NCBI GenBank assembly: GCA_964506465.1
Contig: CAZDLM010000028.1
Location: 1-32,000 of the forward strand
Direction: 5' to 3'
Source of the DNA: an uncultured Syntrophaceae bacterium
GTDB lineage: Bacteria; Desulfobacterota; Syntrophia; Syntrophales; UBA6109
DNA length: 32,000 bases
Part shown: piece by piece, positions 8,250 through 28,571 of the stretch
Layout: every line of letters begins with the position of its first letter
Position numbering within the stretch: the stretch's first letter is position 1
The notes under the pieces: generated by a model
Seen by the model: the letters and a program-made list of their open reading frames with translations, nothing else
The model's database searches: none
What the model was told of the DNA's origin: nothing
Program-made: the position numbers and the translations under genes

Positions 8250-9488
8250 TCAGGAGAAGCGACGGATCAGCAGGCTCGTGTTGACGCCGCCGAAGGCGAA
8301 ATTCTGGACGGCCGCGGTGTCGATGCGCTCCGCCACGATCCCCGGGGTGTGGCGGATCATGGCGCAGCGCTCGTCCGGCTCCTCGAGGTTCAGCGTCGGT
8401 GCGACGAAGCCCTCCCGCATCATATAAAGGATAAGAATCGTCTCGATGGCGCCGCAGGAGCCCATGGTGTGCCCCATGTATCCCTTGAATCCCGTCACCA
8501 GGGGATGGACGCCGTAGACGGCGTGGATCGCCTGGGCCTCGATGATGTCCCCCATCTTGGTCCCCGTCGCATGGGCGCTGATGAAATCGACCTGATCGGG
8601 GTTCAGGGACGCGTCCCGCAGCCCCAGGCGGAGGGTTTCGCCGATTCCCCGCATGTTCGGAAGGATCAGGTCGCCCCCGTTGTTGTTGCAGGCAAAGCCG
8701 ATGACCTCTCCCAGGATCTCGGCACCCCGGTGCCTCGCGAACTCGTATTCCTCCAGGAGCACCGCCCCCGCGCCCTCCCCCACGACGAGCCCGTCGCGCC
8801 TGCGGTCGAAGGGCCGCGGGGTGCACTGAGGACGGTCGTTGAAGGCCGTGGAGCAGGCCAGGAGGTTGTCGAAGACCGCCACGGTCGTCGTGTCGTACTC
8901 GTCGGCCCCGCCGCAGAGCATCGCATCCTGCATCCCGAACTTGACCATCTCGTAGCCGTAACCGATGGACTGGCTGCTGGTCGTGCATGCCGTGGAGGAG
9001 GAGATCACCCGCCCGGTGATGCCGAACATCTTGGTGATGTTGACGGCCGTCGTGTGGACCATCGACTTGAGGTAATCGACCGCGCCGATCGTGGAAAACT
9101 CCGTCCGGCTGCCGGTGAAAAAGGTCTTGTAGATCTCCCGCTGGACCGAGGGGCTGCCGTGCGTCGAGCCGAAGGCCACCCCCAGGCGGCCGGAGGTCAC
9201 GAATTCTGTGGTCAGGCCGGACTGCTCGAGAACTTCCTTCGCCACCTGACAGGCGTAATAGGCGACGGGCCCCATGGTCTTGCGGTAGACCCGTTTGAAA
9301 TCGAACTCGACCGGATAATCCACAGTCCCGAAGACCCGGGAGTGGATGAAGCGGGACAGGAGGTGATCCTCCTTCAGCGGTTTGACGCCGGAAACGCCGC
9401 GCTGAAGGCTCGCCACGATCTCGTCGCGGCCGTGGCCGATCGGCGTGATCGCCGAACAGGCCGTAATGACCACCCTTCGCCCCGTCAT
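8250..9488 (-). CDS. Beta-ketoacyl-ACP synthase (KS, intact Cys-His-His)
   Basis: 412 aa with SSSTACTTSSQSIG (Cys), SAHATGTKMGD (His) and YMGHTMGSCG (His). 4-nt gap to the next KS. Confidence 0.9.
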   Translation of the reverse strand: MTGRRVVITACSAITPIGHGRDEIVASLQRGVSGVKPLKEDHLLSRFIHSRVFGTVDYPVEFDFKRVYRKTMGPVAYYACQVAKEVLEQSGLTTEFVTSGRLGVAFGSTHGSPSVQREIYKTFFTGSRTEFSTIGAVDYLKSMVHTTAVNITKMFGITGRVISSSTACTTSSQSIGYGYEMVKFGMQDAMLCGGADEYDTTTVAVFDNLLACSTAFNDRPQCTPRPFDRRRDGLVVGEGAGAVLLEEYEFARHRGAEILGEVIGFACNNNGGDLILPNMRGIGETLRLGLRDASLNPDQVDFISAHATGTKMGDIIEAQAIHAVYGVHPLVTGFKGYMGHTMGSCGAIETILILYMMREGFVAPTLNLEEPDERCAMIRHTPGIVAERIDTAAVQNFAFGGVNTSLLIRRFS

Positions 9489-9518
9489 GGCCGGGCTCCG
9501 GTATCCGCGGATGCGGCT

Positions 9519-9788
9519 TCAGGAATTTTCATACAGACGCCTCTTGTCGGCCATGAGCACGACATAGTCGATCACCTGCCGGATCGTGCGGATCTCCATG
9601 GCCATCTGCTTTTCTTCATGCGTCAGCTCGCTCTTGAGGAGATGTTCGATTTCCAGGAGCAGCTCAATGGCGTCTACGCTGTCGAATTCGCCGGCTTCGC
9701 GCAAATCGTCATCGAGTCCGGGATTTTCCATCTCGAACTCCCGGTGGAAAATATTCAGAATCTCGAGAGTAATCTGTTCTTTTGTCAT
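9519..9788 (-). CDS. Acyl carrier protein (cluster ACP 3)
   Basis: 89 aa, acidic, with the phosphopantetheine-Ser motif in GEFDSVDAIELL. Confidence 0.85.
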   Translation of the reverse strand: MTKEQITLEILNIFHREFEMENPGLDDDLREAGEFDSVDAIELLLEIEHLLKSELTHEEKQMAMEIRTIRQVIDYVVLMADKRRLYENS

Positions 9789-9864: not shown

Positions 9865-11400
9865 TTACTTTCCCGGGCACTCGGCCGCCTCCGGAGGCGG
9901 CGCGTTCCCGCGGAATTCGTCCAGGTCGGCAAAGCGGTTCATTCCTTCGAGGCGCCGCAGATACTGCTGATAGCGTGCCTGCCAACCGGCCCTGCGGATC
10001 CGCCGGTCGACGAAAAACTTCATGACGGGTTGGATGACGTAGGTCCAGAAGGAGGTCCACAGGCGGCCCTGCTGCACGGCGAAGGCCGAGGGTTTCCACC
10101 ACCCCAGGACCGTTTGCCGGTAATGCCAGAAGGCATATGCCAACTGATCGGCCTGAAGCCGCCGGGTCTTCACATTGGCCCAGAAGCCGTTGTACCGCTC
10201 AAAGCGGTCGGGATTCGTCACCAGGCCCTCGGCGAGCAGATTTTCCCGAAGCCGGGTCTTGGGATAGGGGGTGAGGATCTGGCAATACGCGGCGTCGATC
10301 TCCAGTTCATTGAGGAATCGGTAGTTCTCCTGGATGGCGGTATCATCGTCGTCGGGCAGCCCGAAGATGAGGCCCCCGATCACCATGATGCCGTGCCGGT
10401 GGCAGCTCAGGACGGCCTGCCGCGCCGCCTGGACCAGATCGCCCTTCTCCATGGCCGCGAGGTTCCGGCTGGAAGCGCTTTCAATCCCCAGAAACACCCC
10501 TCGGAATCCCGCCGCGGCCATCTTGGCCACCATCGCCTCATTGCGGGCCATGGAGATGCAGTCTGCCTGGACGATCAGCCGCAGGTTCCGGTATTTCCGG
10601 GCGATGATGGCGTCGCAGACGGCCGTGACCCACTGGGGGTTCAGCACCATGTTGTCATCGGTGATGAAGATGAGACGCGTCTTCCGGTTGAAGTAGATGT
10701 CGTCCAGGTCGGCGAGAATCCGTTCGATGGGATACGTCCGGTAGGAGCGCCCATACATGTGGTTGATGCTGCAGAAGTTGCAGCTTCGCGTGCAGCCCCG
10801 GGAGGTTTCCATGACCTCGATCCGGGAGTACATGAAGTGGTATCCGCGCGTCAGGCGCCGGCGGTCGCGCACCGGGAGCTTTAGCCGGGACAAATCGCAG
10901 AGTTCCCCCGTTTCGTTGTGGATCCATTCGTTCCCGCGCCTGTAGGAGAGCGACGGAACGGCCTCCAGGCTGTCGGTCCCCGCCAGGGCGTTGACCAGCC
11001 TCCGGAACGTCTCCTCCCCTTCGCCGCGGATGATGAAGTCCATCTCCTGCGCATCCGGGGATGTGGCGATCTCGCGGCTCATCAGGGTGGCATGATAGCC
11101 CCCGACGGCGATCTTCACTCCGGGCAGGAGACGCTTGATGAGCCGCATCACGGCCAGACACGTCGGGAACTGCCAGGTCATGGCCGACAGGCCGACCAGA
11201 TCGGGGCGGATCTTCTTGAGGGTCTTCGTCAGATAGGCGACGACGCCGCGGCGCTTGCGGACCAGATCGATCAGATGGACCTCATGCCCCTCATCGATGT
11301 TGCCGGCGACGCAGGCGATGCCGTGGTTGGGCATGTGGAGCGCCGTCTCATGGATCACGATCGGAATCACATCCGGCATCGAGATCAGGACCACCTTCAT
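9865..11400 (-). CDS. B12-binding-domain radical SAM enzyme (class B type)
   Basis: 511 aa. N-terminal Rossmann-like domain (MKVVLISMPDV..., DLVGLSAMT, KIAVGGYHAT) and CxxxCxxC in SRGCTRSCNFCS, followed by a long C-terminal extension. Confidence 0.85.
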   Translation of the reverse strand: MKVVLISMPDVIPIVIHETALHMPNHGIACVAGNIDEGHEVHLIDLVRKRRGVVAYLTKTLKKIRPDLVGLSAMTWQFPTCLAVMRLIKRLLPGVKIAVGGYHATLMSREIATSPDAQEMDFIIRGEGEETFRRLVNALAGTDSLEAVPSLSYRRGNEWIHNETGELCDLSRLKLPVRDRRRLTRGYHFMYSRIEVMETSRGCTRSCNFCSINHMYGRSYRTYPIERILADLDDIYFNRKTRLIFITDDNMVLNPQWVTAVCDAIIARKYRNLRLIVQADCISMARNEAMVAKMAAAGFRGVFLGIESASSRNLAAMEKGDLVQAARQAVLSCHRHGIMVIGGLIFGLPDDDDTAIQENYRFLNELEIDAAYCQILTPYPKTRLRENLLAEGLVTNPDRFERYNGFWANVKTRRLQADQLAYAFWHYRQTVLGWWKPSAFAVQQGRLWTSFWTYVIQPVMKFFVDRRIRRAGWQARYQQYLRRLEGMNRFADLDEFRGNAPPPEAAECPGK

Positions 11401-12269
11401 AGCGCCGCCTTCCTTTCCATGAGGGCGCGCGCCTCGTCCACCAGCGCGGGCAGAGAGAAGGTTTCACTTCCGTAATCCGGCTCCAGGCTCCCGGCCAGTT
11501 CGACGCTGATGACCGCCTCGTCATGGGCATTGAACAGGAATCGGTCCGGCGGAAAGAGTCTCTGCGTGTTGCGGATGAGGACCACCCGGAGGGGCGATGC
11601 CTGGCAGAGACGGGCGATCTTGAACGCGCCCTTGTCGAACGGGCCGATCCTGCCGTTGCGGGACCGGGTCCCCTCGGGAAAGATGAAAAGATTTCCGCCT
11701 GCGGCAAGGTAGTCCTGCATGGCCTTGATCTGGTCGATCATGCTGGCCGAAAACAGTCCCTCGGCCAGCGAAGGAATGTAACCGGAGCGCCGCAGTATCC
11801 AGCCGAAAACGGGAAGACGGAAATAGTCGTTCTTGACGATCGTCTTCTGCTTTTCAAACAGGGAGACGAAGAGGATGGGATCCAGAAACGACAGGTGGTT
11901 GGCGATGATCACCGAAGAACGCAGGGCCCCGACCTCGTCCGAGACATGCCATTTCACCCGGGGAACCAGGACCCGCAGAAGGGCGAAGAACGACCGGTGA
12001 AGGCGGCAGTTCCATCGTTGAAAGGCCGTCTCTCCCCCGGATGAAAAAAAATGCGTGTACAGATAGAAGGGCGAAAAGAACAGAAGGAATCCCAGAATGT
12101 AGTAGGCCCAGAGGAGCGCCGTCACGATGAAGTCATGGACCCATGCCGCAACAGCACGGGGTCCGGTTGGCGTGCCTTCCGCGCTCCCGGCAGTCCCTTC
12201 CGGGTTGTCTGGCAAAGATCGTCCGCCGTCCACCGGGGAGGTTCGGCCGGTCCGTTCCGGTTGGGTCAT
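11397..12269 (-). CDS. 1-acyl-sn-glycerol-3-phosphate acyltransferase-like (PlsC/LPLAT family), membrane anchored
   Basis: 290 aa from ATG 12269 (MTQPERTG...). Hydrophobic N-terminal segments, H(X)4D in IIANHLSFLDP, and the FPEGTRS motif. TGATG junction with the upstream gene and ATGA with the downstream gene. Confidence 0.85.
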   Translation of the reverse strand: MTQPERTGRTSPVDGGRSLPDNPEGTAGSAEGTPTGPRAVAAWVHDFIVTALLWAYYILGFLLFFSPFYLYTHFFSSGGETAFQRWNCRLHRSFFALLRVLVPRVKWHVSDEVGALRSSVIIANHLSFLDPILFVSLFEKQKTIVKNDYFRLPVFGWILRRSGYIPSLAEGLFSASMIDQIKAMQDYLAAGGNLFIFPEGTRSRNGRIGPFDKGAFKIARLCQASPLRVVLIRNTQRLFPPDRFLFNAHDEAVISVELAGSLEPDYGSETFSLPALVDEARALMERKAAL

Positions 12270-16917: not shown

Positions 16918-18345
16918 TCAGCCCTTCGGTTCAAACTGGCGCTTGGCGGACCAGAACGATGGCAGATGCCGGATCAGATAGGCGATGCTTTTCCGATGCT
17001 GCCAAAGACGGCTGCGGAACCTTTTCCGCCACCGGGGGTCGGAATAGAAACGCTTCACATGCTCGTTGTACAGAAAGTCCAGCCTTTCTTTGGATGAAAT
17101 GTCCTTCGAGACAAAAACAAAATTCAGGCAATTCATCAACGGCCAGTCTTCCTGAAACGTCCCTTCATCCCGGATCGTCGACCAGAGCGGCGCCCCGGGG
17201 AAAGGGGTGAACTTGGACATGTTCATGTCGTCGAGCCCAAGCGAAATGATGAAATCCGATGTTGTCCGGATCGACGCTTCCGTTTCGCCGGGCAGGCCCA
17301 TCATGAACAGACCCTTCGCCCGCAGACCCGCGGCCTGAATGCGCCGCACCGTGTCGCAAACCTCGTCCAGCGAGACGCCCGATTTATGCCTGGCCAGCAT
17401 CTGCGAATCCGCCGATTCGATGCCCAGAGAGACCATGAGACACCCGGCCTCCTTGAGCATCCGAAGCAGGTCATCGTCCGCATAACCCACCCGGACGGCG
17501 CAGTTGAAATGGATCCCCAGGGGATGCCGTGCGAGTCCTTCGCAGAGCTCGACGATGCGGCGGCGATCCGCCGTGAAGAGGTCGTCGTAAATGTTGATGT
17601 GCCGCACGCCGAACCGCGTCCGCAGGTGTTTCATGTGCTCATAGATGTAGGGAGCCGAGTTGCAGCGGAATCCCCTCCTGAAGACGGACCGGTCGCAATA
17701 GGAGCATTGAAACATGCAGCCCCGCGACGTGATCATGGTCGCCCCGGGGGTATGGACGTAGCTGAACAAAGGCAGGTGGTAATCCCGCGGGAAGCCCTGA
17801 AGCTTTTCATAGGCGGGGAACGGAAGCGAGTCCAGGTCGACGATCTGCGGACGGGGCGGATTGGTGATCGGCGCGGAATCGCGCCGCCGGATCAACCCCC
17901 TGATGTCCGCGGGATCCGCGCCGCCGGCAAGCTCCGCCATGGTGAGCTCACCCTCTCCGGCGCACAGAAAATCAAAGGCGGGGTACCCCTGCATCAGGCT
18001 ATCCTGCAATGCGGAAACGTGCACGCCTCCGCAGATGGTCCTGACCCGTGCCGCCCGTTTCTTGATTTCCTGCGCCATCTGCGCGGCATCGAGAAAAGAA
18101 GACGTCGTGGCCGAAAATCCGACCATGTCCGGCCCATATCCCAGAATCACCCGAACCTGCGCATCGACGTCGGCGGGGACGCCCGGGCCCAGGCAGTCGT
18201 AGACGAAGACCTCGTGCCCCTGCTGCAACAGGTACGCGGCGATCGAAAGGATCCCCTGGGGAACCATGCGATTAGCGACATCGGTGATGTCGCGCCGGCC
18301 GGGGAACCAGTTGAATCCCCGCGGATGAACCAGGACAATGCGCAT
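16918..18345 (-). CDS. B12-binding-domain radical SAM enzyme (class B type)
   Basis: 475 aa. N-terminal domain MRIVLVHPRG..., DMVGFSATT, ICGGVH. CxxxCxxC in SRGCMFQCSYCD. Confidence 0.85.
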   Translation of the reverse strand: MRIVLVHPRGFNWFPGRRDITDVANRMVPQGILSIAAYLLQQGHEVFVYDCLGPGVPADVDAQVRVILGYGPDMVGFSATTSSFLDAAQMAQEIKKRAARVRTICGGVHVSALQDSLMQGYPAFDFLCAGEGELTMAELAGGADPADIRGLIRRRDSAPITNPPRPQIVDLDSLPFPAYEKLQGFPRDYHLPLFSYVHTPGATMITSRGCMFQCSYCDRSVFRRGFRCNSAPYIYEHMKHLRTRFGVRHINIYDDLFTADRRRIVELCEGLARHPLGIHFNCAVRVGYADDDLLRMLKEAGCLMVSLGIESADSQMLARHKSGVSLDEVCDTVRRIQAAGLRAKGLFMMGLPGETEASIRTTSDFIISLGLDDMNMSKFTPFPGAPLWSTIRDEGTFQEDWPLMNCLNFVFVSKDISSKERLDFLYNEHVKRFYSDPRWRKRFRSRLWQHRKSIAYLIRHLPSFWSAKRQFEPKG

Positions 18346-18396: not shown

Positions 18397-18972
18397 TTAC
18401 GGCCGACGCTGCGCCTCCACCAGGGAGCGAATATTCTCCCTGTGGCTGAATACAATCAGCAGGACCGTCAGCGTAGTTCCCGCGAGGGGAACCGCGTGAG
18501 CGCCGCCCGCGGCGATGGTCACGGCCCCGAGGGTCGCAATCATGCAGAAGGAGGCGATGAAGGGAATGTGCACGACCTGCTGGACCGCGACCCAAAGGAT
18601 GCAGGAAGCAGCCGCCCCCCAGGGCGACAGCGCAAGGGTGAAGCCCAGATAGCCGGCAACGCCCTTGCCGCCCCGGAACCGGTGAAAGCAGGGGAAACGG
18701 TTCCCGGCGACCAGGGCGAGACCGACCCACGGGATCAGGTCGTCCCGGAGAAGGACCGCCGCCAGCAGCGCCAGGCAGGCGGCCCGTCCCACGTCGAGGA
18801 CGAGTACGACGGCCGCCCATCCCTTCCCGGCCTGACGGTAGACGTTGGTGGTCCCCGCATTCCCGCTGAATGTCGTCCGCGGATCCCCCTTGCCCAGAAG
18901 CCCGAGGAGAAGAATGGCAAAATTGACCGACGCCGCGAGATAGGTCAAGAAGAGAATACCGGTAAACCGCAT
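18397..18972 (-). CDS. plsY: PlsY-family glycerol-3-phosphate acyltransferase (divergent, cluster-embedded)
   Basis: 191 aa polytopic membrane protein with PlsY motifs FSGNAGTTNVYR, FPCFHRFRGGKGVA and SHRENIRSL. Confidence 0.8.
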   Translation of the reverse strand: MRFTGILFLTYLAASVNFAILLLGLLGKGDPRTTFSGNAGTTNVYRQAGKGWAAVVLVLDVGRAACLALLAAVLLRDDLIPWVGLALVAGNRFPCFHRFRGGKGVAGYLGFTLALSPWGAAASCILWVAVQQVVHIPFIASFCMIATLGAVTIAAGGAHAVPLAGTTLTVLLIVFSHRENIRSLVEAQRRP

Positions 18973-18976
18973 CCGT

Positions 18977-19840
18977 CTAAGTCTCCCGAGGCTTTCTCAC
19001 CCAGGCGGGGGGCGTCCGCCTCCCGCCGGAGATGTCCCGCATCTCGAGCCCCTGGATGATCTCCGCGTCCCCGCCGTCGCGATCCCGGAGCCATACGTTG
19101 AAACGCAGCACCGGGGCCTCTCCCGGCAGAGGGACGATGCGGCAGTCATAGGTTCCGCCGGCCCGGGTCGGGGCGAGGATCCTTCTTCGCCTGAAGCCCA
19201 CGGGGAAGGCGACCGTGTTCCTGTACCGCTGCGCCCAGGCGCAGGCGATATGAAAGGCCGCATCGGCGGGGAACGGGGACCCCAACGGCCCGGCCGGCTC
19301 GGGCGCTTCCCCCCCGGAGACCTCGGCCCAGGCCGCGGTTTCCGTCAGGCTGACGTCGCCCGCCACGTTCTGATAGGCCGGTCCGAAGGGAACCAATTCC
19401 TCGTAGAGAAGGCGGCACGGCAGCGTGAAGACCGGCTCCGTCCCGGCCGCGGACGGCGTCTCCATCCGGTCCGTCTCTTCCCCGGCGGGCAGAAAGAAGA
19501 CCGACGCATGCTCGACCCGGCGCGTCCATTTCGCCTGCCGTCCCGAGCGGACGGTCAGCAGCCTGGAAATGCAGCTTCCGTCCGCGAAACGCGAAATCTC
19601 ATGGACGGCCGGGATCTCGCGCAGGCCCGGTTCGACGATCAGAAGGTGGCTGAACGCGCCCGCTTCCTGCCGGTGAGGATCGGCGGAAACGGACGCGGGC
19701 AGCGTGGCGGCCAGGACCTGCAGGGCCTCTACGGCGGGAAGAACCACGCGGCCGGAAACGCGGTGGTCGTGCAGATACGCGGGCACGGGCACCGCCACGG
19801 GAACGTCTATCGTTTCGACGGGCTGGGAAAGGTTTTCCAT
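18977..19840 (-). CDS. Free-standing PKS-type (double-hotdog) dehydratase
   Basis: 287 aa from ATG 19840 (MENLSQPVE...). HxxxGxxxxP in LHDHRVSGRVVLPAVEAL and DxxxH in PADAAFHIA. The track ORF extends to 20221 across the thioesterase gene. Confidence 0.75.
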   Translation of the reverse strand: MENLSQPVETIDVPVAVPVPAYLHDHRVSGRVVLPAVEALQVLAATLPASVSADPHRQEAGAFSHLLIVEPGLREIPAVHEISRFADGSCISRLLTVRSGRQAKWTRRVEHASVFFLPAGEETDRMETPSAAGTEPVFTLPCRLLYEELVPFGPAYQNVAGDVSLTETAAWAEVSGGEAPEPAGPLGSPFPADAAFHIACAWAQRYRNTVAFPVGFRRRRILAPTRAGGTYDCRIVPLPGEAPVLRFNVWLRDRDGGDAEIIQGLEMRDISGGRRTPPAWVRKPRET

Positions 19841-20298
19841 AACTGAACGGTCTTGGGATCGACGGCCACGGGAATCCCCCTGGAATTGAGGGCGCAATGC
19901 CGGGTGTAGCCCCGGCAGACATCGGCCCCCGTCTCCGCGTGGGTGATGACGTAATCGAACTGGAGACGGACACGCTGGAGCTCCGCCGGCCGCGTGTGGA
20001 TCCACATGGGATCGTCGTAGTGCAGCGGCTGGTGGAACTGGATCGCCAGGTCGATGATGGGGTAGACGTAGCCGCTGTCCTCGATCTCCCGATAGGGGTA
20101 GGCGGCGTCGCGCATCAGCGACGTCCGGCCGAATTCGAAATACCGCAGATAATTGGCGTGATACACGACGGTGGAGCGGTCCGTATCGGCGTAAAGGGTC
20201 CTCATCCTGCACCGGTGCCATATCAGTCCCGTCGCAGCTTCACGGACGTAACGATCGTCCTCTCCCTGAGGTTCGGTCCGAAACGGCCTGGGCTTCAT
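19807..20298 (-). CDS. 4HBT/YbgC-type acyl thioesterase
   Basis: 163 aa from ATG 20298 (ATGA overlap with the KS stop). Active-site segment YADTDRSTVVYHANYLRYFE. The 3' end overlaps the DH start by 34 nt. Confidence 0.8.
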   Translation of the reverse strand: MKPRPFRTEPQGEDDRYVREAATGLIWHRCRMRTLYADTDRSTVVYHANYLRYFEFGRTSLMRDAAYPYREIEDSGYVYPIIDLAIQFHQPLHYDDPMWIHTRPAELQRVRLQFDYVITHAETGADVCRGYTRHCALNSRGIPVAVDPKTVQLWKTFPSPSKR

Positions 20299-21566
20299 GG
20301 CGCCACCCCCCGGAATATGATGCAGCAGTTTGTGCCGCCGAAGCCGAAGGCGTTCGACAGGGCCATCTCGCATCGGTGCGGACGGGCCGTGTTCGGCACG
20401 CAGTCGATGTCTGCAAAATGCGGATCGGGGATATGGTTGATCGTGGGCAGGATCACCCCCCGCTGCATGCCCTCGATCGTGAGGGCGTCTTCGATGGCCG
20501 CCGCCGCCCCGAGGGTATGGCCGATCTGGGACTTGTTCGAGGACAGGGGGATCTTCTCCAGGGACCGGCCGAAGACCGTCCGGAGGCACTCGACCTCGAC
20601 GAGGTCTCCTTTCGGCGTGGAGGTGCCGTGGGCGTTGATGTACTGGATGTCCGAAGGCTGCAGGGCCGCGTCGTGGAGCGCCTCCCGGATGCCCCGGATG
20701 ATCGTTTCGGGATTGGGCTTGGTGAAATGGTAGGCATCGGAGGTCCAGCCGACCCCCATCACCTCCGCCCGCGCCTGAAGGCCGTACCGCGCCAGCATCT
20801 CCTCGGCGGCGAGGACGACGACGCCGGCCCCTTCGGAAACGACGAAACCACGCCGATCCACGCTGAAAGGCCGCGAGGCCTGCCCGGGATTCTCGTACGC
20901 CCGGTCTCCGGGGACCACCTTGACGGTGGCGTTCATATTGGCGAAGCCGTGGATGATCTCCGGAAGGATCGGGGTATCTACCCCGCCGGCCAGGACGAAA
21001 TCGCAGTCCCCGTCACGGATCATGCGGGACCCGATGCCGATCGCGTGGTTCCCCGAGGCGCAGGCCCCCTGGGGAGAAAAGACGGGTCCCGTGAAACCGA
21101 GCAGCATCCCCGCCTTTCCCGAAGGAAGATTGGCGCAGAGATTGGGCAGGAGGTAGGGGCTGATCTTCAGGGCGCCCTTTTCCTGGAAACGGAGCATGGC
21201 GGTCCGGAAGGAATCCACGCCATTGATCGCCGAACCGATGAGGCAGGCCGTCCGGGGACCGGTTTCCCCGTCCATCGGCAGACGGGCGTTCGCCAGGGCT
21301 TCGCGGCAGACGGCCATGGTGAGGATGACGAAAGCGGCGTCCCAGTTGTACACTTCCTTGGCATCGACGAACTCGAGCGCCAGAGGGTCCCAGTCCGGGA
21401 TCTCCCCAACCACGTTGCAGGGCGAATCGACCTGGCAGCGGGTGACTTTCCGGAAACCGGCCTCGCCGCGGACGGCCCTTTCCCACGTCTCGGGAAATGT
21501 CCGCCCCAGCGGGGTGGCCGCTCCGTAACCGATGACGAAAACGCGTCTGTTCTGTGGCGCCCTCAT
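20295..21566 (-). CDS. Beta-ketoacyl-ACP synthase (KS, intact Cys-His-His)
   Basis: 423 aa from ATG 21566 (MRAPQNRRVFVIGYGAATPLG). PQGACASGNHAIG (Cys), NAHGTSTPKGD (His), SQIGHTLGAAA (His). The 39 upstream in-frame codons in the track have visibly lower third-position GC and are judged non-coding. Confidence 0.85.
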   Translation of the reverse strand: MRAPQNRRVFVIGYGAATPLGRTFPETWERAVRGEAGFRKVTRCQVDSPCNVVGEIPDWDPLALEFVDAKEVYNWDAAFVILTMAVCREALANARLPMDGETGPRTACLIGSAINGVDSFRTAMLRFQEKGALKISPYLLPNLCANLPSGKAGMLLGFTGPVFSPQGACASGNHAIGIGSRMIRDGDCDFVLAGGVDTPILPEIIHGFANMNATVKVVPGDRAYENPGQASRPFSVDRRGFVVSEGAGVVVLAAEEMLARYGLQARAEVMGVGWTSDAYHFTKPNPETIIRGIREALHDAALQPSDIQYINAHGTSTPKGDLVEVECLRTVFGRSLEKIPLSSNKSQIGHTLGAAAAIEDALTIEGMQRGVILPTINHIPDPHFADIDCVPNTARPHRCEMALSNAFGFGGTNCCIIFRGVAP

Positions 21567-21721
21567 GCCGGAATCAACCCATCCTTCACGATGCTGAAAT
21601 ACCGGTCTCCCGACGACGGGAAAACCGCAAAAACCCTCGCCCTGACCGGTGCCGGAATCTTTCCAAAGGTGGGAAATCGTCACCGGGACGCGTGCAGGGA
21701 AGGATTGTCAGGGTCCTCATA

Positions 21722-22975
21722 TCAGGCAACACGGCGAAACACAAGGCAGGCGTTGCAGCCCCCGAAACCGAAGGCATTCTTCAGGACATGCTCCTGCGTC
21801 AGGCGCCGGGCGCCTTCGGCGACGCAGTCAAGATCGATCGCCGGATCGCGCCGGTAGTTGATCGTGGGCAGCAGAACGCCCCGCCGCATCCCTTCCAGGG
21901 TCAGGATCGATTCCACGGCGCTCGTGGCCCCCATGGCATGTCCCAACTGCGACTTGTTGGCCGAGACGGGAGGGATCCTTTCTCCGAAGATCTCCCGGAG
22001 GGCCTCGGCCTCGACCTGATCGCCCACCTTGGTCGAGGCGGCGTGGGCATTGATTGCATCGATGTCCGCCGGTGCAATGCCGGCGTGGACGATGCTTTGG
22101 GCCATGCAGCGCGTCACCGTAACGGGATTGGGGGCTACCACGTGACAGGCGTCGGCGTTCATCGCCCAGCCGGCCAGCTCAGCGTCGAAGGCAAGACCGT
22201 GGGCCGCGGCAAAGGCCCGTGAAGCGATCACGATGCAGCCCGCCCCCTCGGAAACGACGAATCCACGGCGCCCGAGAGAAAAGGGCCGGCTCGCCACGCC
22301 GGGCGGCAGGGGCGCTTCCCCCTCCTTGGGGCGGTAGGCGCCGTTCATCGTGGCAAAACCCGCCACGATCGGCTCGATCAGGGGAAAGTCCGCGGCGCCG
22401 CAGATGGCCACGTCGGCCATCCCCTGGGCGATGAACATCGCCCCCAGGATCAGCGAACTGCTCCCCGTGGCGCAGGCGGTGACCACCGAGGCAATGGGCC
22501 CGGTCGCCCCGGTCAGGATGGCCACCTTGCCTCCCACCATGTTGATGCAGGAATTGGGATTCATGAAGGGCTGCGGCAGCTTCCCGGCCGCCGTCCAGCT
22601 CCGGTCCGCCGCGATGAGCGCATCCAGCCCGCCGATGGCGGAGCTGAAGGTGACGGCGACCCGCGGGGCCAGGTCCGGCGTGATCTCCAAGCCGGCCTTC
22701 TTCAGCGCCCTGTGGACGACGAGCAGGGCGTGCGGGAAAATCGGGGAGGTCCAGTGGGCCATCTCGCGGGGTTGCAGAAACGGATAGGGGGCGACGTCGA
22801 TGGGGTCGACCTGGCCGGCGATCCGGACGGGAAAGCCTTCTTTCAGGGGGAAGCGGGTCAGGCCCGATACGCCGCTTTCGCCCGCGGCGGCCCGGCCCCA
22901 CTGATCTTCCAGCTCGGCGCCGAGGGGCGAGACGGCATCATATCCCAGGATCACGGGTCGAGTGTCGTTCATCAT
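21722..22975 (-). CDS. Beta-ketoacyl-ACP synthase (KS, intact Cys-His-His)
   Basis: 417 aa with VVTACATGSSSLILG (Cys), NAHAASTKVGD (His) and SQLGHAMGATS (His). Confidence 0.9.
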   Translation of the reverse strand: MMNDTRPVILGYDAVSPLGAELEDQWGRAAAGESGVSGLTRFPLKEGFPVRIAGQVDPIDVAPYPFLQPREMAHWTSPIFPHALLVVHRALKKAGLEITPDLAPRVAVTFSSAIGGLDALIAADRSWTAAGKLPQPFMNPNSCINMVGGKVAILTGATGPIASVVTACATGSSSLILGAMFIAQGMADVAICGAADFPLIEPIVAGFATMNGAYRPKEGEAPLPPGVASRPFSLGRRGFVVSEGAGCIVIASRAFAAAHGLAFDAELAGWAMNADACHVVAPNPVTVTRCMAQSIVHAGIAPADIDAINAHAASTKVGDQVEAEALREIFGERIPPVSANKSQLGHAMGATSAVESILTLEGMRRGVLLPTINYRRDPAIDLDCVAEGARRLTQEHVLKNAFGFGGCNACLVFRRVA

Positions 22976-28208: not shown

Positions 28209-28571
28209 TCACCGTCCGTCCATCTTTTCGACGGTCCTTCGCGCGGCCCAACGGAGGAAGAACAAGACATAGGTCGATCCGGCAAGCCAGGAACCGACCA
28301 TGAAAACAATGTGGGAAAGGCCGTAGGTCAAGGGACCCCCGACGGCGACAACGAGCGGCTCATTCAGGGAATAGGCCATGACGGCCAGAAGCCCCACCGC
28401 CGGCCAGCCGATGAGGTAGCTCAAACCAACGAGTCCCAGCCCCACCCAGACCCGGGGTTGCGGTCTCCCGCGCAGCGAAGAGAGATCCCCCTTCTCCTCC
28501 ATGGCCTCGCGCACAAAACGCATCCGGACCAGCCGGCGGACGATCGCTGCCCTGATCGGACCCCCTGACAT
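28209..28571 (-). CDS. Small integral membrane protein (hypothetical), first gene of the cluster
   Basis: 120 aa from ATG 28571, preceded by GGAGGGAG. About three hydrophobic segments (VWVGLGLVGLSYLIGWPAVGLLAVMAY, PLVVAVGGPLTYGLSHIVFMVGSWLAG, TYVLFFLRW). No recognisable motif. Confidence 0.55.
   Translation of the reverse strand: MSGGPIRAAIVRRLVRMRFVREAMEEKGDLSSLRGRPQPRVWVGLGLVGLSYLIGWPAVGLLAVMAYSLNEPLVVAVGGPLTYGLSHIVFMVGSWLAGSTYVLFFLRWAARRTVEKMDGR

Follow-up and report, generated by a model that had tools for sequence, protein, structure and literature searches.

Which acyl donor serves a PlsY-family enzyme that is encoded within a lipid biosynthesis gene cluster, in a genome in which no PlsX is found? 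PlsY, PlsX and the fatty acid kinase Fak belong to textbook bulk phospholipid synthesis and have been studied almost exclusively in Firmicutes and in a small number of model organisms. The question is raised by a stretch of 32,000 nucleotides (positions 1-32000 of contig C28, CAZDLM010000028.1; called the window here) from an uncultured Syntrophaceae bacterium that is represented by a metagenome-assembled genome (MAG) of 3.14 Mb and 86.7% completeness (G000). The gene at issue is the following:

18397-18972, minus strand: Asn-type PlsY (glycerol-3-phosphate acyltransferase family), 191 aa; PF02660, match to 5xj5, AlphaFold2 (AF2) model

The explanation that we favor, and to which as a whole we assign a probability of roughly 0.6, is that this gene encodes a glycerol-3-phosphate (G3P) acyltransferase that belongs to a PlsY subfamily of its own, one in which Asn takes the place of a donor-binding His (hereafter Asn-type). 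Judged from gene content, what supplies the enzyme is very probably not PlsX but a thioesterase and a single-chain kinase for fatty acids that are inherited along with it.

Donor site of the Asn-type PlsY

The reading frame extends from an ATG at 18972 to a TAA at 18397-18399 on the minus strand, and the TAG stop of the gene upstream lies 4 nt before the ATG. The encoded protein matches PF02660 (G3P_acyltransf) with an E value of 7.6e-35 and 120.9 bits (cut-off 24.1) over profile positions 2-164 of 164, but stays below the NCBI PlsY equivalog TIGR00023 (93.8 versus a cut-off of 137.2). HMMER aligns it over residues 7-187 with PlsY from Aquifex aeolicus (aaPlsY; 5xj5, E value 1e-18), the only member of the family with a solved structure (5xj5-5xj9; Li et al., 2017, PMC5700162). 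An AF2 model built with an alignment of 50 sequences reached a predicted local distance difference test score of 97.1 and was matched by Foldseek to 5xj5, 5xj6, 5xj7 and 5xj8 with template modeling scores of 0.85-0.89 and root-mean-square deviations of 2.1-2.4 Å; the same search returned no fold other than PlsY at E values below 1, and the predicted structure agrees with the seven-helix membrane fold of aaPlsY. All three PlsY motifs that the first-pass annotation had recognized from the letters alone are found in the frame (FSGNAGTTN, FPCFHRFRGGKG and SHRENIRSL). By sequence and predicted fold, this is a genuine PlsY-family gene.

In aaPlsY, G3P is clamped by Ser35, Arg45, Lys104 and Asn180, the 2-hydroxyl group is liganded by Ser142 and His177, and Asn37 serves as the oxyanion residue (Li et al., 2017, PMC5700162). 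Acyl-phosphate is bound in a 'phosphate hole' made up of the Lys104-Ala107 backbone and the His92 side chain. Only one other side chain contacts this substrate, that of Thr41, whose hydroxyl group binds the acyl carbonyl. Across the family, site 92 is occupied by His in 97.8% and by Asn in 0.5% of the sequences, and the H92N variant of the Aquifex enzyme has 6.9% of its activity left with an unaltered Km for G3P (all PMC5700162).

An Asn where His was expected, just before the FP of motif 2 (AGNRFPCF), had been noticed earlier, and it was left to an alignment with a characterized PlsY to decide whether the position is a conserved one. The HMMER alignment places this residue, Asn91, on His92 of aaPlsY. 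The substitution is real, it falls on the donor-binding site and not on a non-conserved position, and it is meaningful because that site is so strongly conserved. The second deviation pointed out at the time, TFSGN in place of HGSGN in motif 1, has to be split: the Thr/His site is variable across all PlsYs, whereas the residue next to it does differ. At the position of Gly34 the window PlsY carries Phe; of 72 canonical sequences, 71 have Gly there, whereas the Asn-type subfamily has Phe, Tyr or His in 50 of its 70 rows. Every G3P-binding residue is kept in the window PlsY, as are Asn37, Thr41 and the GGKGVA loop, such that the phosphate hole retains its backbone loop and has Asn in place of His92.

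A search of 1.84 billion representative proteins yielded 8,891 matches, and a maximum-likelihood tree was built from 143 aligned full-length sequences. A branch with 95% support in the Shimodaira-Hasegawa-like approximate likelihood ratio test (SH-aLRT) has 72 His92 rows on one side and, on the other, all Asn92 rows together with four Thr rows, one Val row and a single His row on a long branch. Residue 92 on the non-canonical side is accordingly Asn in 65 of 70, Thr in four and Val in one, and it is Asn in all 24 cluster-linked homologues taken from loci. Residue 98 is His in 68 of 70 members of the subfamily as compared with 15 of 72 canonical sequences, and in helix 3 Arg-Ala replaces an otherwise invariant Lys-Gly. 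Asn92, His98 and Arg-Ala in helix 3, plus three more sites, define the subfamily. The acceptor side presents itself differently: S35, N37, R45, K104, S142, H177, N180 and the GGKGVA loop are at least 90% conserved in both subfamilies, and in one alignment (A1) the G3P clamp, Ser142 and His177 are invariant except for Ser142 (at least 90%). Thr41, which is Thr in 63 of 72 canonical sequences, is Thr in 48, Ser in 11 and another residue (Val, Ile, Met, Phe and others) in the remaining 11 of the 70 subfamily members. Tree and alignments thus set the Asn form apart as a separate PlsY subfamily, with changes that concentrate on the donor side and leave the acceptor site untouched. Asn-type PlsY was seen in Desulfobacterota, Spirochaetota, Myxococcota and in MAGs labeled 'Pseudomonadota'.

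In the model, Asn91 closes the helix formed by residues 77-92, and His97 (corresponding to residue 98) resides in the loop 93-104, the phosphate-hole loop. On the basis of this predicted geometry, His98 may assume part of the role of His92; the Asn92/His98 pair is nevertheless left without an explanation by the donor model. Compared with the Aquifex enzyme, the window PlsY is alike in family, fold, G3P clamp (S35, R45, K104, N180), S142/H177, Asn37 and GGKGVA, and differs in having Asn at 92, His at 98, Phe at the position of Gly34 and Arg-Ala in helix 3. A PlsY subfamily devoid of the donor-binding His constitutes a natural experiment on the function of the phosphate hole.

Distribution and supply of acyl-phosphate

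The first-pass annotation had proposed that PlsY and a PlsC-type enzyme of the window form a pathway-dedicated pair, and had held that the gene would be a housekeeping one if it were the only plsY of the genome. It is indeed the only PF02660 match in its own assembly, yet this does not refute the proposal: Syntrophales use PlsB and most members have no PlsY. GPAT_C, which marks PlsB, was detected in 36 of the 41 genomes from Syntrophales, PlsY in 13. A tandem radical SAM pair that serves as marker of the gene cluster around PlsY (rSAMa) occurs in 14 of the 41, and 13 of these are the genomes with PlsY; PlsY was found in none of the 27 Syntrophales that lack the cluster, among them a 100%-complete genome of the same genus (G001). 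The fourteenth genome, G027, possesses cluster and kinase and might be taken for a counter-example, but its contig breaks off 4.2 kb past the marker and does not reach the site where PlsY would be expected. The search for a second, housekeeping plsY/plsX/plsC set in the organism's own assembly gave a mixed outcome: neither a second plsY nor a plsX turned up, but an 873-aa PlsB-like gene (PF01553 and GPAT_C; NCBIfam PlsB E value 2.4e-146, under the equivalog cut-off) and a PlsC above its cut-off are located elsewhere. Together with the adjacency of PlsC and PlsY genes in many relatives, these findings support the idea of a dedicated pair. Asn-type PlsY is an accessory, cluster-dedicated enzyme, and the housekeeping role in Syntrophales is filled by a PlsB-type enzyme. 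In other families of the phylum, the Asn-type gene also occurs as a second copy beside a canonical PlsY, with PlsX in seven of seven such genomes tested, and PlsB was present in four of four tested high-quality genomes that have just the Asn-type. A housekeeping role, therefore, does not follow from a gene being the single plsY of its genome. No match at all for PlsB (GPAT_C), PlsX or PlsY was obtained in G040, a complete genome on a single contig.

The absence of plsX, noted originally for the window, extends to the whole assembly and indeed to the order: PlsX (PF02504) was not found in any of the 41 Syntrophales genomes, nor in five more carriers of Asn-type PlsY (Spirochaetota, Leptospirales and 'Pseudomonadota' MAGs and two 'deltaproteobacterial' MAGs). 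We reject the possibility that PlsX was overlooked, as the identical search recovered it from control genomes and from 10 of 15 further genomes of the phylum. Two genomes, G333 and G377, pair PlsX with Asn-type PlsY only, and Asn-type PlsY may therefore also accept acyl-phosphate made by PlsX. The Spirochaetota MAG G041 contains two paralogous Asn-type PlsYs (L047, L052) and neither canonical PlsY nor PlsX was found there; that its second copy is canonical could be dismissed, both copies being of the Asn type.

Three further genes are needed for an answer to the question of the donor, the first of which resides outside the window:

C28:35712-37607, minus strand: fused FakA-DegV fatty acid kinase; Dak2, FakA-like_M, DegV
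19807-20298, minus strand: 4HBT-type thioesterase; 4HBT_2 E 6e-14, 4HBT E 1.2e-9
11397-12269, minus strand: cluster PlsC-like lysophospholipid acyltransferase; PF01553 E 8.8e-20

The kinase gene is found 3.7 kb past the window end (L053:5712-7607) and shares contig and strand with PlsY. A single frame of 631 aa contains Dak2 (E value 7.9e-17), FakA-like_M (1e-8) and DegV (1.8e-34) domains, and NCBIfam reports YloV and DegV matches, the latter with 134 and 153 bits versus a cut-off of 99.7. The FakA equivalog NF038248 gives 83-93 bits against a cut-off of 975. Among PDB entries, residues 12-290 match FakA (7w7h, 7rm7, 8vip) and residues 300-574 match full-length FakB/DegV. Neither FakA_C nor PF13684 was matched by the fused protein in PDB and Pfam comparisons, and DegV holds that position. 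Across 58 homologues, conservation reaches at least 95% for DGDTG, Cys220, His257 and His259, the counterparts of the ATP site and of the Cys-His-His triad in Staphylococcus aureus FakA (PMC9136124). The gene product consequently unites the domains that characterize a fatty acid kinase, i.e. Dak2, a Cys-His-His middle domain and DegV, and lacks the organization in two components. With FakA/FakB of Firmicutes (S. aureus, S. pneumoniae, E. faecalis) it shares the Dak2 ATP-binding domain, the Cys-His-His middle domain and a full-length DegV/FakB, and like them it would supply PlsY with its donor. In contrast to these systems, it is one polypeptide with a true DegV domain in the place of FakA_C, a FakB-docking domain without a fatty-acid tunnel (PMC9136124), and it occurs in Gram-negative anaerobes where it is tied to a biosynthetic cluster. 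Metagenomic homologues of the fused kinase number in the thousands, and public records name them only 'DegV family EDD domain-containing protein'.

DegV was detected in exactly the 14 of 41 Syntrophales that bear the cluster and in all five extra carriers, in a frame of about 570-690 aa. For the phylum we used an evenly drawn sample of 401 genomes, in which a close Asn-type PlsY was defined by at least 46% identity. Such a PlsY is present in 22 genomes, the full-length fused kinase in 33 and both in 21; the kinase hence occurs in 21 of 22 Asn-type carriers versus 12 of 379 other genomes, a comparison whose Fisher values are descriptive only, since related genomes are not independent. In nine carriers outside the Syntrophales, kinase and PlsY share a contig at a distance of 0.2-18 kb, and in G308 the two genes are divergently adjacent. 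The fused kinase, annotated as 'DegV family', appears to be the source of acyl-phosphate where PlsX is absent. Because the GGKGVA backbone loop is invariant and because kinase and thioesterase co-occur with the enzyme, acyl-phosphate is still the most likely donor of Asn-type PlsY as far as sequences allow this to be judged.

Proposed route and competing explanations

The best explanation of these observations is a route of four steps. The 4HBT thioesterase would free the finished acyl chain from acyl carrier protein (ACP) as a free acid, which the single-chain fatty acid kinase would then bind and phosphorylate to acyl-phosphate. Asn-type PlsY would move the acyl group from acyl-phosphate to the sn-1 position of G3P, giving lysophosphatidate, and the PlsC-like enzyme of the cluster would acylate sn-2. 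Family membership, residue pattern, gene linkage and co-occurrence are shown by the data, whereas the substrates, the sequence of reactions and the nature of the acyl chain are inferred. A precedent is offered by streptococci and enterococci, where an acyl-ACP thioesterase (TesS or TesE) and Fak produce acyl-phosphate and thereby bypass PlsX (PMC12288450). The logic of proceeding from acyl-ACP via free acid and acyl-phosphate to PlsY is the same. There, however, it is a side route for bulk fatty acids or a suppressor of plsX loss, while here it appears to be built in as the sole acyl-phosphate route in a specialized cluster of PlsX-less organisms. In comparison with the known PlsY (YgiH), the window PlsY is accessory, embedded in a cluster, below the TIGR00023 cut-off and not accompanied by a detectable PlsX.

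Several explanations compete with this route. The first-pass annotation had thought of an altered acyl donor, and it is conceivable that Asn-type PlsY has given up acyl-phosphate and accepts the acyl group straight from a thioester, be it acyl-ACP of the cluster or acyl-CoA. The residue that is replaced is a ligand of the donor phosphate, Thr41 is relaxed in the subfamily (48 of 70 as against 63 of 72), PlsX was found in no Syntrophales genome searched and the cluster provides three ACPs, all of which would agree with such a change. We nevertheless consider it unlikely: the backbone phosphate hole with GGKGVA and Asn37 is invariant, Asn is a conservative, hydrogen-bonding replacement for His, a complete fatty acid kinase co-occurs (14 of 14 and 21 of 22 genomes), a thioesterase encoded two genes upstream would destroy the thioester, and thioester use is known for no PlsY (PMC5700162). 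The missing PlsX is explained by the co-occurring fused kinase and thioesterase. The cluster encodes all three steps of the thioesterase-Fak-PlsY route and a PlsC-like enzyme besides, and the four-step reading makes an altered donor unnecessary. To about the same degree we doubt that kinase and Asn-type PlsY form a salvage module that puts exogenous fatty acids into phospholipid and is linked to the cluster without handling its product. It is true that activation of exogenous fatty acids is the established role of Fak (PMC12288450), that Syntrophales live on fatty acids, that the kinase gene is tens of kb or more away from the cluster in several genomes and that family f40 combines the fused kinase with canonical PlsY only. 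Against this, PlsY occupies a conserved place in the order ketosynthase-ketosynthase-thioesterase-dehydratase-PlsY or ACP-ketosynthase-PlsC-PlsY across several families, cluster genes accompany it in Spirochaetota and 'Pseudomonadota' carriers as well, and neither PlsY nor kinase was found in the 27 Syntrophales without the cluster.

A changed acceptor, meaning another phospho-alcohol or glycerol-1-phosphate in place of sn-glycerol-3-phosphate, is very improbable, as all six of the crystal-defined G3P-binding residues are conserved. It could be brought into play by the altered neighbor of the clamp Ser (Phe, Tyr or His instead of Gly34 in 50 of 70 subfamily members) and by a 2026 paper that reports PlsY and PlsC to be able to use both glycerol-phosphate stereoisomers (PMC13400652). 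Still less can be said for a housekeeping PlsY that lies in the cluster by chance, which the single PF02660 match of the genome and the carriers G021 and G024 without a GPAT_C match might suggest. Its distribution (not found in 27 of 41 relatives, including the complete genome from the same genus) and the presence of PlsB-like genes in 36 of 41 lead us to reject this role, to which its occurrence as a second copy beside canonical PlsY and PlsX in other families and the score below the TIGR00023 cut-off can be added.

A number of observations weigh against the four-step route. H92N is a poor enzyme in the Aquifex background (6.9%), which makes the use of acyl-phosphate by the Asn form an assumption. 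Fisher values calculated for the co-occurrence overstate the evidence. The kinase gene is distant from the cluster in some genomes, e.g. by 1.3 Mb in G377, and in 12 genomes the fused kinase is present although no close Asn-type PlsY was found. Of these 12, five that all come from family f40 (G061, G138, G201, G230, G289) have canonical His92 PlsY only. Conversely, G357 contains an Asn-type PlsY and neither a nearby cluster nor fused kinase nor PlsX was found. The carriers G021 and G024 yielded no GPAT_C match, and their principal acyltransferase might therefore be the Asn-type PlsY. Finally, the organism's own assembly is just 86.7% complete. Two side observations belong to the same genomes: the fused kinase of family f40 is a more distant form (40-46% identity), and plsY of G357 (C49, L063:9728-10312) is situated between a gene for a solute-binding protein and a DUF362 gene, 5 kb from a PlsB-like gene.

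If the four-step route applies, the product of the cluster is predicted to end up as the sn-1 acyl chain of a glycerophospholipid. Going one step further, Asn-type PlsY, single-chain FakA-FakB kinase and 4HBT thioesterase might make up a portable module for release, re-activation and loading that ladderane-like clusters carry between phyla and that delivers their product to sn-1 without PlsX; the exchange of His92 for Asn with an obligatory His98 would then be an adaptation either to the hand-off from a tethered FakB or to a modified acyl-phosphate. We give this wider proposal an even chance. Such a module would make acyl-phosphate chemistry a dedicated branch of specialized lipid biosynthesis in Gram-negative anaerobes and would provide a handle for finding the products of orphan clusters. 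Elsewhere in the same genome (L004:516-2567, contig C36) an Aas-like fusion of AMP-binding, ACP and PF01553 domains is encoded, possibly a second route by which free fatty acids are recycled.

Gene order in the cluster

The genes surrounding PlsY, in addition to those listed above, are:

8250-9788, minus strand: ketosynthase (8250-9488) and ACP (9519-9788)
16918-18345, minus strand: B12-binding radical SAM enzyme, directly downstream of PlsY (51-nt spacer); PF02310, PF04055
18977-19840, minus strand: polyketide synthase (PKS)-type dehydratase-like (hotdog) protein; PS-DH E 2.9e-5, PKS_DH_N E 1.2e-3
20295-21683 and 21722-22975, minus strand: two ketosynthase genes, conserved core; PF00109, PF02801
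23007-24029 and 24008-25168, minus strand: tandem radical SAM pair, cluster marker; PF04055
30947-31864, minus strand: LpxL-like lipid acyltransferase; Lip_A_acyltrans E 9.7e-11
C28:31861-34968, minus strand, reaching past the window end: MMPL-methyltransferase fusion
C28:34975-35769, past the window end: GT2

The LpxL-like gene opens an upstream block that extends past the window, and it separates, together with the MMPL-methyltransferase and GT2 genes, the kinase gene from the window. A frame of 414 aa upstream of PlsY resolves into two genes, one for the 4HBT thioesterase and one for the PKS-type dehydratase, which places the thioesterase two genes upstream of PlsY. Homologues of the thioesterase with 58-68% identity occupy the same position in L061, L062, L064, L065 and L067, and the two core ketosynthases share 63-81% identity across all related loci. 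The cluster holds three ACPs in total as well as a flavoprotein resembling amine oxidases and phytoene desaturases. The PlsC-type acyltransferase at 11397-12269, reported already from inspection of the letters, is real in that its PF01553 match is accompanied by the HX4D (HLSFLD) and FPEGTR (FPEGTRS) motifs; with 61.3 bits it remains under the cut-off of TIGR00530 (102.95).

The usual arrangement in relatives is radical SAM-radical SAM-ketosynthase-ketosynthase-thioesterase/dehydratase-(B12 radical SAM)-ACP-ketosynthase-PlsC-PlsY. Its last part, ACP-KS3-PlsC-PlsY, has the counterparts of the ketosynthase and ACP genes at 8250-9788 directly upstream of PlsC-PlsY, and PlsC adjoins PlsY in L022, L024, L029 and L030. 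PlsY is found among cluster genes in all 12 loci fetched from relatives, two of which are short contigs with few neighbors. The order ketosynthase-ketosynthase-thioesterase-dehydratase-PlsY recurs in five of 10 loci fetched from other families of the phylum, and cluster genes also stand beside PlsY in the Spirochaetota and 'Pseudomonadota' carriers. The cluster appears to have crossed phyla and may be regarded as a mobile ketosynthase/ACP/radical SAM lipid cluster of the 'ladderane-like' type.

Clusters that combine genes for type II fatty acid synthesis, radical SAM enzymes and phytoene desaturase-like proteins have been compared between Kuenenia stuttgartiensis and Desulfotalea psychrophila (Rattray et al., 2009). 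The cluster described here resembles them in gene content, with several FabF-like ketosynthases, ACPs, radical SAM enzymes and an amine-oxidase/phytoene-desaturase-like flavoprotein. That comparison makes no mention of PlsY, PlsX or an acyltransferase. 'Ladderane' gene clusters with no assigned function have been reported in Desulfobacterota and other non-anammox phyla, and in the library searched, no paper was found that connects PlsY or a fatty acid kinase with such clusters or with these taxa. Asn-type PlsY and the fused kinase both appear to be core parts of the widespread orphan 'ladderane-like' clusters of anaerobes.

Two further genes of this region deserve mention. The fusion protein at C28:31861-34968 (1035 aa) is a membrane transporter of the MMPL/RND type with a C-terminal SAM methyltransferase domain and is conserved with the cluster in other families (L064, L066). 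A protein of 120 aa without a family match is encoded at 28209-28571 on the minus strand of the window, and its homologues occur beside Asn-type PlsY in several other families, immediately upstream of it in L059 and L066 and adjacent on the opposite strand in L062 and L064; it may be a partner of PlsY.

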